64,000 bases of DNA. Source: Escherichia phage LF82-41. The notes under the pieces are model-generated. The model had not been told where the DNA came from. It did not search any database and was given only the letters and a program-made list of their open reading frames with translations. Positions within the stretch are counted from its first letter, which is position 1, and every line of letters begins with the position of its first letter. Made by a program: the position numbers and the translations under genes. The stretch lies in the sequence record PV660463; one strand, given 5' to 3'. This document shows positions 41,313 through 64,000 of the stretch, piece by piece.

Positions 41313-42413
41313 TTACGCTGTGAAGATTTTATCCCACATCGCAACAACTGCATCTCGGTTATACTTCTTCCATACTGCTTCAGCACGTTTAACTCGAGCT
41401 TCGTATGTGTCAGTGAATTCTAATACAGCTTTTGTGTAAAGCGCAACTACTTCTTTCTTAGGAGTAGAGGAATCAATTTCTACACGCACAGTATCTGGGT
41501 CGTATTCGAATGTCGCGTGCGGATAATCCTTAAAAACTAACTGAATCACAGGGACACCTTTAGAGATGGCTTCAATAGAACTATTCTCTACCGTACCCGT
41601 GTCAGGACACGTATTGATAAGTGCTTTAGCTGTTTTAAGACGTTCCATGATTTCACTGTGTGGAGCATCAATAATAACAGGATACTTAGCCGGCGGTGCC
41701 CATTTACTAGGACAGTATCCTGCACCATTTTCGCCTAGTGCTTTAATCGCTTCAAGAGCAACATCAGTACGACGCATTTTAGTGTCATAACGTTGTGCAC
41801 TAATAATCAGATCAGTCGCCGGAAGAACTTCAGGTTTATCATTCAAACAAATAACCGGATAATCTTCGGCTTCAAACAACGGATTTGCTCGCCAATAATC
41901 ATAATCAATTTTGCCAGTCAGACCTGAAGTCATATAACAATATTTGCGTTCAAATTCACGGAAGGCTTTAGTAGGAGCATAACTCTTACCACCGTTCTTA
42001 TGAATTTGAATAGTCTGGTCCCAAATTTGAACAATGCCACGAGATACCGGTTCAAATGGTGTTGCCATAAAATTCTTATGAACTTTAGAGAGACCTGCGT
42101 CTTTAATTGCCTGAACGGTTAGTTTGGTCGGTTCCATTGTAACAACGAAATCGTACTCATTAATGCCGGCTAGTTCAACAATCTTACGAGCCATAGTATA
42201 ACTCATACCTAGACTGAATTTAGTCAGATGACCAACAGGATGATGATTAACCTTCCAGTCACCAAACGTGTCATTATCAAAGCCGATATAATCAATATCA
42301 GCACCGATGGACACAAGATATTTCAATACATTTAAATGTACTGCTTCAAGACCACCTTGTACACGTTCTGGGTTAAATGGGACTGCGCGAGATGGGATAA
42401 ACATAACTTTCAT
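41313..42413 (-). CDS. GT-B fold glycosyltransferase (GT4-like); candidate DNA sugar-modifying enzyme
   Basis: 366 aa; N-terminal Rossmann start MKVMFIPS...GGLE; C-terminal nucleotide-sugar-binding segment GTVENSSIEAISKGVPVI resembling the GT4 consensus EGFGLVLLEAMAAGKPVI; RBS AAGG; no similarity to recalled T4 alpha-gt or beta-gt. Confidence 0.7.
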   Translation of the reverse strand: MKVMFIPSRAVPFNPERVQGGLEAVHLNVLKYLVSIGADIDYIGFDNDTFGDWKVNHHPVGHLTKFSLGMSYTMARKIVELAGINEYDFVVTMEPTKLTVQAIKDAGLSKVHKNFMATPFEPVSRGIVQIWDQTIQIHKNGGKSYAPTKAFREFERKYCYMTSGLTGKIDYDYWRANPLFEAEDYPVICLNDKPEVLPATDLIISAQRYDTKMRRTDVALEAIKALGENGAGYCPSKWAPPAKYPVIIDAPHSEIMERLKTAKALINTCPDTGTVENSSIEAISKGVPVIQLVFKDYPHATFEYDPDTVRVEIDSSTPKKEVVALYTKAVLEFTDTYEARVKRAEAVWKKYNRDAVVAMWDKIFTA

Positions 42414-61328: not shown

Positions 61329-61673
61329 TTAAAAGAATTTAAATTTTTTCTTGGTTCGTTCATTAAAAGCTTGTTGTACTTGCATTGTAACACATTTTTC
61401 AACATGTGGTGCAAGTTCTGCTTTTCTGTCCTGGTCAAGAACTGCAAAGTCCATTACGATTTTACCATCAACCCAGTCTAGTTTTGTAATATAGACTATA
61501 TGATGGGAACCGTCTTCAAGTGTAATCAGAATCTCTTGAATGACATTTTCCATTGCTGAACGGACAATTTTAAGAGATTCATTAAACACTCGTTCTTTGC
61601 GAATGTCCTCCCCTTCCGAAGAAGGGGATTCATCAACGATTTCTAGATTTAAATCATCGAGATTATTCATCGA
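61329..61673 (-). CDS. 40: probable gp40 (head vertex assembly chaperone) by position
   Basis: Track ORF trimmed to internal ATG at 61673 (MNNLDDL...) to remove 150-nt overlap with uvsX; about 114 aa vs 120 aa in T4. Confidence 0.5.
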   Translation of the reverse strand, partial: SMNNLDDLNLEIVDESPSSEGEDIRKERVFNESLKIVRSAMENVIQEILITLEDGSHHIVYITKLDWVDGKIVMDFAVLDQDRKAELAPHVEKCVTMQVQQAFNERTKKKFKFF

Positions 61674-62835
61674 AATCTTCCATTTCGTCAAGGTCGTTTT
61701 CAATATCTGCTGCAGACGGAGCATCAGAAGCTTTAACAGGAACTTTAGTTGTTGCTTTGCAATTAATAAGGTCGTTAACAGCGTCATCAACTTCTTTAAT
61801 AGAAGAGATAGCACCTAGTTTATATTTAGTTTCAATTGCATCTCGGAAAGGTTTGTGTTTAAACAACGGTCCCCAGAATTCTACACAATCAGTAGCTTTA
61901 GCACGCCACGATTTCTCTTCACGAATCATTTCGCCTGTTTCTTCGTCAAGGAATTCACGAGCATACCAACCGGCTTTAGGCTTAACAACAAATCCAATTT
62001 CAGTTGCCATTTCTAACAAGCCACTGAATGGGTCGATACCACCATCAAAATTAACTGTGATTGGGAAAGTAGATTTCTCTTTAACTGTACGAGATTTTTC
62101 TGCTTTCAACGTGAAGTCATAACCGGTCAATTCTGTACCTTCTTTAACCTGACGTTTAGAGATAAAGAATACAGTGTTAGCAGAATAAAGAATACCTGTA
62201 CCACCGCCCATAATCTCTTTAGGATACAATCCGCCAATTTCCATTGCGGTATGGTTAATTGCAACACACGGAATATCTTTAATAGTCAGATACGGGGTCA
62301 CAATACGGAAAAGAGATTTAAGTGCCTTAGCACGAGACATATCACCTACAACTTTCTCGTTCAATGCATCTTCAGTTTCTTTCTTAGATGCAGTATTACC
62401 GATTGAATCGATAAAGATAATAACTTTATCACCGCGTTCAATCGCGTCAAGCTGATTAGTCATATCAACTTTAAGTTGTTCGACTGACTGAATTGGTGTA
62501 TGAACTACACGGTCTAAATCAACACCCATTGAACGAAAATAAGATTCTGAAGCACCAAATTCTGAATCATAGAACAAACAGATTGCATCTTTATATTTCT
62601 TCATATACGCTGCAACCATAGTTAGTCCAAACAACGTTTTAAAGTGTTTAGAAGGAGCAGCAAAAATAGTCAAGCCTGATTGCAATCCTGCATTCAGAGC
62701 ACCACCTAGTGCAATATTCAACATCGGAATACGAGTAGGGACTTCATCACGATTATTAAACAGCTTAGACTTAGTCAAGTCTGCAGTCATTTTAGAAGTA
62801 GAAGCTTTAATCAGACGAGATTTTAAATCAGACAT
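61663..62835 (-). CDS. uvsX: recombinase UvsX (RecA/Rad51 family)
   Basis: 390 aa; RecA-like P-loop region FAAPSKHFKT; acidic C-terminus. Confidence 0.95.
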   Translation of the reverse strand: MSDLKSRLIKASTSKMTADLTKSKLFNNRDEVPTRIPMLNIALGGALNAGLQSGLTIFAAPSKHFKTLFGLTMVAAYMKKYKDAICLFYDSEFGASESYFRSMGVDLDRVVHTPIQSVEQLKVDMTNQLDAIERGDKVIIFIDSIGNTASKKETEDALNEKVVGDMSRAKALKSLFRIVTPYLTIKDIPCVAINHTAMEIGGLYPKEIMGGGTGILYSANTVFFISKRQVKEGTELTGYDFTLKAEKSRTVKEKSTFPITVNFDGGIDPFSGLLEMATEIGFVVKPKAGWYAREFLDEETGEMIREEKSWRAKATDCVEFWGPLFKHKPFRDAIETKYKLGAISSIKEVDDAVNDLINCKATTKVPVKASDAPSAADIENDLDEMEDFDE

Positions 62836-62933
62836 TGTATTTTTCCATAGGCATCATTATATTTTACTCATGTTTAAAAGATAAAACGATTATATACTAA
62901 GGGTTATACAGCATTTAAAACTTTAAATGGCTC

Positions 62934-63482
62934 TTAACGAGCCCATTTAATGATTTCTGTAATCAAATTATTACGTTCGCTTGCATTAAATCCTATAACT
63001 TTGTTAGAACCATCATGATTAAGTAATTGATACGTTTGGATTTTGTTATGAATTGCAAACTCTTCAAAATGTGAAATGACTGTATTAAAACCGAATGAAG
63101 ACAAAGTAATAAGGTCGTCTTCAAAACTTTCAGTCATTTCGTTACGTGTTAAAATAATTGTGAACACATCATGGTTTTGGCAAAGACGAACATAATCCTG
63201 TTCATAAACGTCAAGAACCGAGTCCGCATCTTGTCGAATACGTCCATAAACCCAGTTACTAATATATCCACGGTCTAATAGATAAATCTTAGTAGGGTCT
63301 AAATAATTCAACATCGTTTCGAAACAGCCAACTTCATTTCGAGACTTAACATCGAAACGCCCATCAACTGTTCGTTTAGGGAAATCAATCTTTACATATC
63401 TTTCACTAATTTCCATTATGTCATTAATGAAAGTTGTTTTACCAGCATTATCCGGCCCGTCTACTAAAATAATTTTAGCCAT
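62934..63482 (-). CDS. thymidylate-kinase-like P-loop (d)NMP kinase
   Basis: 182 aa; P-loop LVDGPDNAGKTT (cf. TMK IEGLEGAGKTT) and LDRGYISNWVYG (cf. TMK DRH..S..AYQG); occupies position of T4 beta-gt. Confidence 0.6.
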   Translation of the reverse strand: MAKIILVDGPDNAGKTTFINDIMEISERYVKIDFPKRTVDGRFDVKSRNEVGCFETMLNYLDPTKIYLLDRGYISNWVYGRIRQDADSVLDVYEQDYVRLCQNHDVFTIILTRNEMTESFEDDLITLSSFGFNTVISHFEEFAIHNKIQTYQLLNHDGSNKVIGFNASERNNLITEIIKWAR

Positions 63483-63483
63483 T

Positions 63484-64000
63484 TTATTCCTCGATTACGA
63501 CATCTTCGTATTTAGGTATATTATACGGCGAAGAAATTAAAGCATTAAAGTAGATGAACTCACCAAGACCTGGATGGAATACTTCTTCAGGATTTTCGAA
63601 ATATTGAATCTTCGGACGTCCTTTAAGAATTTGATAGTACTCAGTTTTAGTTGGATTAAAAATTCGAATCAGCGCTTCTTCAGGATACTTATTTCTGTCG
63701 AAACTATTATTTGGATCAGTTATATAAAGCGGTTGACCTAATTGAATTGCGCATTCAACAACTTGTTCAAAACGATAGCATGGGTCACTAATTCGAAATG
63801 GATGAAAAATACCATCTAGATGAATAGGAGCCAAATCACCTACAAGACGCTGCATGACGGAAGGACGTATAACTTTCTGCGTTACGATAATCTTATTACC
63901 ATCTGCACCTGCGTTAACCAGCACTTCTTTTTGACGTTCATTCAACACAGTAGTTTGAAGTGAACGATTAACAGACAACATGTCGGTTTTTAAGAATTCA
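63484..64000 (-). CDS. hypothetical protein, 5' end probably beyond window
   Basis: Frame stays open upstream of the track start at 63981 to the window edge with no SD; no recognisable family; not dCMP hydroxymethylase-like. Confidence 0.45.
   Translation of the reverse strand, partial: EFLKTDMLSVNRSLQTTVLNERQKEVLVNAGADGNKIIVTQKVIRPSVMQRLVGDLAPIHLDGIFHPFRISDPCYRFEQVVECAIQLGQPLYITDPNNSFDRNKYPEEALIRIFNPTKTEYYQILKGRPKIQYFENPEEVFHPGLGEFIYFNALISSPYNIPKYEDVVIEE

Follow-up and report, generated by a model that had tools for sequence, protein, structure and literature searches.

Phage RB69 carries arabinosylated cytosines (Thomas et al. 2018, PMC6024577), and its modified base was shown to be mono- or di-arabinofuranosyl-5-hydroxycytosine (Lee et al., NAR 2026, PMC13326640). 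In this system, the gene-42 homolog gp48 is a flavin-dependent 5-hydroxylase of deoxycytidine monophosphate (dCMP), and gp46:47 and gp3 were proposed to be arabinosyltransferases 1 and 2, respectively (PMC13326640). In phage HY126, AfhE and AfhF together cover the phosphorylation, uridylylation and dephosphorylation of arabinose-5-phosphate (cited in PMC13326640, section 27). RB69p045 was listed in 2021 as a thymidylate-kinase homolog, presumably for the arabinosylated nucleotide (PMC8056088). Here we analyze the end (positions 62934–64000) of a stretch of 64,000 nucleotides (nt) from Escherichia phage LF82-41 (sequence record PV660463; hereafter the window), where the gene for a P-loop kinase of 182 amino acids (aa) and an incomplete open reading frame (ORF) upstream of it lie next to uvsX (Table 1). 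It is quite probable that these two ORFs belong to the Mosigvirus gene cluster for the replacement of cytosine by mono- and di-arabinosylated 5-hydroxycytosine, of which they form the end next to uvsX, and that the kinase serves this pathway specifically. The locus itself is securely identified. The arabinosyl-5-hydroxycytosine system is known from Lee et al. (NAR 2026) and from earlier papers, and no new type of system is added by the window; what is new is the co-distribution and coupling of the kinase with the first glycosyltransferase. Gene identity, folds, orthology and synteny come from our own comparisons, while the chemistry of the base, of the hydroxylase and of sugar activation is taken from the literature (PMC13326640).

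Segment 61000–64000 of the window matched 152 phage genomes at a coverage of at least 80% in megablast searches, all of them RB69-like and belonging to the genus Mosigvirus. Nucleotide identity was generally 98–99% and reached 99.2% for the best genomes, and judged by this identity the window belongs to the RB69-like Mosigvirus phages. Compared with the RB69 cluster of gp45–gp55 plus gp3 (PMC13326640, PMC6024577), the window contains 98% identical orthologs whose order is unchanged, and its second locus is again found between rIIA and the topoisomerase gene; there is no substantive difference and the window is a member of this group. The window and near-identical phages share the gene order 41-40-uvsX-kinase-glycosyltransferase-(gene-42 homolog), whereas the order in T4 is 41-40-uvsX-segA-beta-gt-42. 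A previous interpretation of this DNA from its letters alone (the sequence-only reading) had assigned both ORFs to the slot of the T4 beta-glucosyltransferase gene, beta-gt. This is correct for the upstream ORF, whereas the kinase stands in the position of segA. The same reading had proposed to look beyond position 64000, and the genomes of relatives allowed this: they complete the upstream ORF, have the gene-42 homolog directly upstream of it, and the cluster continues further upstream. In phage UGJNEcP1 (locus L001), the genes beyond the upstream ORF encode a thymidylate-synthase (ThyA) homolog, a peptidase-like protein, a HAD phosphatase, a 561-aa nucleoside-triphosphate (NTP) transferase/kinase and a KpsF isomerase (arabinose-5-phosphate).

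Both loci are close to the Afh system of phage HY126. The 366-aa ORF of the second locus, flanked by rIIA-like and gp39-like ORFs, matched the HY126 glycosyltransferase (PDB 9iqz/9ir0) over its full length with E 5.4e-247, and the ThyA homolog, which in the relatives lies just past the window edge, matched PDB 9iqc/9ir2 with E 7.9e-161, so that the proteins are near-identical to the HY126 structures 9iqz and 9iqc. Together with the assignments made for RB69 (PMC13326640), this near-exact match upholds the earlier suggestion of a two-locus DNA-modification module distinct from the T4 glucosylation system. The base of this module is arabinosylated 5-hydroxycytosine and is not of the hydroxymethylcytosine type, and the neighbouring "gene 42" encodes a dCMP 5-hydroxylase (PMC13326640). 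In another cluster of the arabinosylation type, that of Morganella phage Rgz1 (locus L019, 5023–5400), a gene annotated as putative chorismate mutase separates the peptidase-like gene from that of the ThyA homolog.

Within the window, the upstream ORF comprises 165 aa from an internal ATG (63484..63981, minus strand), and its frame is open to position 63999 (EFLKTD before MLSV). Since the frame is open to the edge and matches residues 129–299 of a 299-aa protein, the gene passes the window edge and approximately 128 codons (~385 nt) are missing, in agreement with the sequence-only reading and with the complete 299-aa gene of UGJNEcP1. The 165-aa fragment is 98% identical to residues 135–299 of the cluster representative P0031 (299 aa), and the ORF is 98% identical to RB69ORF046c. 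The separation of gp46 from gp47 in the RB69 record goes back to a sequencing error within one gene (PMC13326640), and related genomes contain a single 299-aa gene instead. Used as query, the fragment retrieved 3 proteins, while the repetition with the full-length gene of UGJNEcP1 yielded 120 homologs. For the fragment, no family was found in Pfam and no match in NCBIfam, none of the 120 homologs carried a Pfam domain, and the only PHROGs match, phrog_3891, has no annotated function. The full-length model of P0031, with a predicted local distance difference test score (pLDDT) of 94, consists of two Rossmann-like domains in GT-B topology. According to this model, the ORF, for which no recognisable family had been seen before, is a GT-B glycosyltransferase and the positional counterpart of beta-gt. 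Profile comparison detected homology neither to T4 beta-gt (hhalign probability of the family profile 0.09%) nor to the second glycosyltransferase of the window, and the search for solved structures matching the 299-aa glycosyltransferase in the PDB found none. For Shewanella phage Thanatos, TH1_063 (300 aa) was reported as UDP-xylose pyrophosphorylase (PMC12838424). Its size and its position beside the ThyA homolog TH1_062 fit the family of the 299-aa glycosyltransferase, and the syntenic Thanatos gene is treated as a single arabinosyltransferase in PMC13326640, which conflicts with the assignment in PMC12838424.

The kinase starts with MAKIILVDGPDNAGKTT and contains the P-loop motif LVDGPDNAGKTT at aa 6–17 and the sequence LDRGYISNWVYG at aa 69–80. 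It is 98.4% identical to RB69ORF045c (tblastn), and its database homologs (27, to E 2.6e-35) as well as a match to the PHROGs family phrog_761 "thymidylate kinase" (E 1.7e-45) indicate that the ORF is a real gene. The AlphaFold model, calculated with 19 homologs in the alignment, had a pLDDT of 87.8 and the three-dimensional fold of thymidylate kinases (TMK), which were also the top fold matches and are nucleotide rather than sugar kinases. The P-loop kinase with TMK-like signatures announced by the sequence-only reading is borne out in ORF and fold, and our checks of fold and family reproduce published fold assignments. In hhalign, GPDNAGKT...FPKR of the kinase aligned with GVDRAGKS...FPER of human TMPK at a probability of 93%, with a template sequence that may be inexact; against vaccinia TMK the family profile reached E 0.0026 at best, with a weak match in the DR region. 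A phmmer search of the PDB found neither a TMK nor any other solved structure matching the kinase, and the comparison with T4 gp1 (PDB 1dek/1del) revealed no joint similarity of structure and sequence. Matches to RecA, thioredoxin and ABC transporters in Pfam, NCBIfam and the PDB were dismissed as chance or P-loop-only similarities. Across 19 relatives, 37 residues are invariant; GPDNAGKT, FPKR and DRG are kept in all close relatives, and the Arg of FPKR together with several flanking residues is not kept in distant members. With cellular and viral thymidylate kinases (PF02223, TIGR00041), the protein has in common the fold and, as far as the close relatives show, a P-loop with Asp in the third position, an FPxR-like segment and probably DR after strand 3. 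It differs from them in being about 30 residues shorter, in staying under all curated thresholds, and in an invariant F-x-D-D-L-I in the LID-equivalent segment, which is unusual compared with the basic LID residues of TMKs. A distant relative with 32% identity and the P-loop GPDNAGKTT was found in an unrelated small phage, represented by a viral contig of 47.8 kb that encodes a DNA polymerase of family A (L017, 6001–9555). It is followed by ORFs of 139 and 282 aa, a ThyA homolog and a probable dCMP deaminase, which may represent another pyrimidine-modification cluster.

Among 50,697 phage genomes searched with tblastn, the kinase was found in 343 and the 299-aa glycosyltransferase in 348, with kinase/glycosyltransferase counts by genus of 176/176 for Escherichia, 57/57 for Acinetobacter, 15/15 for Shigella and 7/7 for Proteus. 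All kinase matches belonged to T4-like phages, no Tequatrovirus records were seen among them, and the T4 locus has no kinase gene. In 22 of the 25 related loci, the kinase gene directly adjoins or overlaps that of the glycosyltransferase (junctions of –26 to +1 nt), and the order ThyA homolog, glycosyltransferase, kinase is present in 16 kinase-retrieved loci (–13 to +1 nt). An unbiased test was provided by 6 distant metagenomic loci that were retrieved via glycosyltransferase homologs alone (36–45% identity). All six contain an ORF of 168–185 aa abutting or overlapping the glycosyltransferase, and these ORFs match the kinase profile with E 1e-24 to 1e-40, with an hhalign probability of 99% for both that were tested. 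Both this near-equal distribution and the coupling in 22 of 25 loci, including 6/6 distant ones, are new findings of the present analysis. In the window, the stop codon of the glycosyltransferase (63486–63484) and the ATG of the kinase (63482–63480) are separated by 1 nt; judged by this arrangement, the two genes are likely to be translationally coupled. A scan of 62600–64000 for promoters and terminators found nothing exceeding the shuffled expectation. Two of the metagenomic loci, on contigs of 122 kb (L025, 6739–9594) and 169 kb (L026, 6715–9555), consist of a Flavodoxin_2-type reductase, the ThyA homolog, the glycosyltransferase and the kinase, and no isomerase (SIS), NTP-transferase or HAD genes were found within 8 kb. 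A reductase of this type is in keeping with a flavin-dependent hydroxylase, and the arrangement suggests glycosylation of 5-hydroxycytosine with a host-supplied sugar donor. Because of the near-equal distribution, the coupling and these minimal modules, the kinase goes with the hydroxylase and the first glycosyltransferase and not with sugar activation.

In the published pathway (PMC13326640), the ThyA/gene-42 homolog converts dCMP to 5-hydroxy-dCMP by flavin-dependent hydroxylation, and the isomerase, the bifunctional kinase/uridylyltransferase and the HAD phosphatase produce UDP-arabinofuranose from arabinose-5-phosphate. The 299-aa GT-B glycosyltransferase would attach the first alpha-arabinofuranose to the 5-hydroxyl, and the glycosyltransferase of the second locus, a proposed beta-arabinosyltransferase, would add the second arabinose. 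The kinase would phosphorylate C5-oxygenated dCMP to the diphosphate and thereby let the modified nucleotide reach the pool of deoxynucleoside triphosphates (dNTPs). We infer that it is a nucleoside-monophosphate kinase with TMK fold that is genetically coupled to the first glycosyltransferase and dedicated to the pathway. Of the three roles considered in the sequence-only reading, action on a modified nucleotide is thereby favoured, and we see about an even chance that the substrate is C5-oxygenated dCMP, meaning 5-hydroxy-dCMP and/or its O-arabinoside. This substrate class is proposed because of the mononucleotide-kinase fold, the conserved catalytic motifs, the confinement to phages with 5-hydroxycytosine and the ties to hydroxylase and glycosyltransferase; the order of glycosylation and phosphorylation is likewise inferred. 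A transposon-mutagenesis preprint (LC53, Bas46) contains no essentiality data for the kinase gene.

Several observations weigh against a kinase dedicated to this pathway and its proposed substrate. RB69 gp45 was labelled "nucleotide kinase" with a TMK fold and no experiments on gp45 were reported; gp159, the T4-gp1-type deoxynucleoside-monophosphate (dNMP) kinase of RB69, converts 5-hydroxy-dCMP to the diphosphate and suffices together with the hydroxylase for the presence of 5-hydroxy-dC in E. coli DNA (PMC13326640). Since gp159 already performs this reaction, a second 5-hydroxy-dCMP kinase would be redundant. The role of the upstream ORF as first arabinosyltransferase is itself a published hypothesis (PMC13326640), and its DLP3 ortholog was inactive in vitro on DNA containing 5-hydroxycytosine (PMC13326640, section 26). 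At the level of sequence, the kinase obtained 16.9 bits with TIGR00041 (dTMP kinase; cutoff 83.25), and PF02223 was not matched at E ≤ 1 in the Pfam search. JS98 (Dhakavirus), Proteus phage Pm5461 and a Klebsiella phage have the kinase gene within the cluster but apart from the glycosyltransferase gene, with a 4-nt overlap into the gene of the HAD phosphatase. In Morganella phage MP1 (L013, 5995–6525; L023, 20500–21030), a kinase with all 37 invariant residues lies between the DNA polymerase gene and uvsX, and no hydroxylase, glycosyltransferase or arabinose genes were found nearby; MP1 was reported to lack base-modification enzymes (PMC8056088).

The redundancy with gp159 raises the question whether the 299-aa glycosyltransferase might act on free 5-hydroxy-dCMP, with the kinase being specific for arabinosyl-5-hydroxy-dCMP, the polymerase using glycosylated dCTP and further sugars being added on DNA. 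A separate gp1-type kinase handles 5-hydroxy-dCMP (PMC13326640) and might refuse the bulky arabinoside, and the tight coupling of glycosyltransferase and kinase even in deep-branching lineages as well as the minimal modules, in which hydroxylase, glycosyltransferase and kinase occur together, would find an explanation. No activity on 5-hydroxycytosine DNA was obtained with single glycosyltransferases, the DLP3 ortholog among them, and the authors could not say whether the mononucleotide or the DNA receives the first arabinose (PMC13326640, section 26). On this route, moreover, arabinosylation would precede incorporation. 5-Hydroxy-dC is an oxidative lesion, and it would presumably be advantageous not to expose it in DNA. 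However, all established phage DNA glycosylation is post-replicative, following the T4 paradigm (PMC13326640, introduction), later arabinoses were shown to be added on DNA, and 5-hydroxy-dC itself can be incorporated in E. coli. Such a division of labour also fits poorly with Dhakavirus, Bragavirus and Klebsiella phages, where the kinase is displaced from the glycosyltransferase, and with MP1, which has the kinase alone; the negative in vitro result was given as "data not shown" (PMC13326640), and trivial reasons for it are numerous. Glycosylation before replication is therefore rather unlikely in our view, and it receives real but limited weight because gp1-type redundancy poorly explains the strict conservation of the kinase.

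It is a little less probable than this that the protein serves as a common auxiliary dTMP/dNMP kinase, which would raise the supply of nucleotides without taking any specific part in modification. Its best fold matches are thymidylate kinases, and several GenBank/RefSeq records give it that name, but the main support for this explanation is the intact copy in MP1, a phage without the modification cluster (PMC8056088). An auxiliary supply enzyme does not readily account for a distribution almost equal to that of the glycosyltransferase, for a position within the cluster in every locus except MP1, or for the absence of Tequatrovirus records from the matches, and the protein failed the dTMP-kinase equivalog model TIGR00041. 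T4-type gp1 kinases cover dTMP, so that the gp1-type kinase of these phages already serves this substrate. A sugar or sugar-nucleotide kinase that assists UDP-arabinose synthesis is very unlikely. The overlap with the HAD sugar-phosphatase gene, after the NTP-transferase/kinase gene, in JS98, Pm5461 and the Klebsiella phage would be in line with such a function, but L025 and L026 retain the kinase in a context devoid of SIS, NTP-transferase and HAD genes over 8 kb, AfhE and AfhF already account for the steps of sugar activation (cited in PMC13326640), and the best fold matches are nucleotide kinases; the gene contexts thus disfavour the sugar-nucleotide precursor named in the sequence-only reading. 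The third role named there, a kinase acting on a base in DNA, finds a precedent in 5-HMUDK, a DNA kinase for 5-hydroxymethyldeoxyuridine (5-hmdU), since 5-hmdU DNA kinases are small phage P-loop kinases encoded in base-hypermodification clusters as well (PMC8989533). They differ in acting on DNA to generate a leaving group and in travelling with aGPT-Pplase transferases, neither of which fits the present locus: no aGPT-Pplase or amino-acid:DNA-transferase genes were found in the annotated or Pfam-labelled neighbourhoods, the fold is that of mononucleotide kinases, and tblastn matched T4-like phages only. A phosphate leaving group on the 5-oxygen would have no role because the bridging oxygen derives from 5-hydroxycytosine (PMC13326640). 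Lacking a chemical rationale, this role is the most improbable of all.

With the glucosyl-hydroxymethylcytosine system of T4, the locus shares the position of a glycosyltransferase gene directly downstream of a ThyA-family gene and close to uvsX, as well as the logic that a ThyA homolog modifies dCMP before GT-B enzymes add the sugar. It differs from T4 in that 5-hydroxycytosine is formed by a flavin/O2 enzyme instead of 5-hydroxymethylcytosine, that the sugar is arabinofuranose made by phage enzymes, and that T4 has no TMK-like kinase at this locus. The same grouping of three genes, encoding a kinase, a glycosyltransferase and a 5-hydroxy-dCMP synthase, is found as gp214–gp216 in Rhizobium phage RL38J1 (PMC13326640). 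RL38J1 belongs to an unrelated phage family and contains hexosylated 5-hydroxycytosine with galactose/glucose and not arabinose (PMC13326640).

Hypermodification protects Mosigvirus and a large number of other T4-like phages against restriction enzymes and CRISPR nucleases, which makes the locus relevant to phage therapy and phage engineering. The coupling of glycosyltransferase and kinase and the minimal modules sharpen the question of the kinase substrate and make glycosylation before replication directly testable. If the substrate of the kinase were a glycosylated mononucleotide, phage DNA would not in every case be glycosylated after replication; the pathway would be the first viral case of pre-replicative nucleotide glycosylation and would provide an enzymatic route to sugar-bearing dNTPs.

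Table 1. Positions in the window of the kinase, the two glycosyltransferases and uvsX.
Feature	Position	Strand	Remarks
P-loop kinase, thymidylate-kinase-like fold; RB69 gp45 ortholog ("nucleotide kinase")	62934..63482	(-)	182 aa, ATG start
GT-B glycosyltransferase (by model), 3' part (residues 129-299 + stop); RB69 gp46:47 ortholog	63484..64000	(-)	full gene 299 aa
Glycosyltransferase/kinase junction, TAA + 1 base + ATG	63480..63486	(-)	sequence gaggaaTAAaATGgct
Second glycosyltransferase, RB69 gp3 ortholog, between rIIA and topoisomerase large subunit	41313..42413	(-)	366 aa
uvsX	61663..62835		downstream of kinase, then gp40 and gp41

Two further observations concern the genes downstream of the kinase. 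The gp40 ORF of the window (61329–61814, minus strand) has 161 aa when counted from its GTG and shares ~150 nt with the end of uvsX. As gp40 is annotated with 113 aa and an overlap with uvsX of just 8 nt in related genomes, the first-start rule has probably made the 161-aa form artificially long. In Yersinia phage vB_YenM_TG1 (L010, 7339–9896) and Proteus phage Pm5461 (L021, 11249–13576), uvsX is present in two pieces separated by an insertion of ~0.8–1.3 kb, which in Pm5461 is annotated as a homing endonuclease. Because of these split uvsX copies and the location of T4 segA beside uvsX, the uvsX junction appears to be a recurrent target of mobile endonuclease genes.

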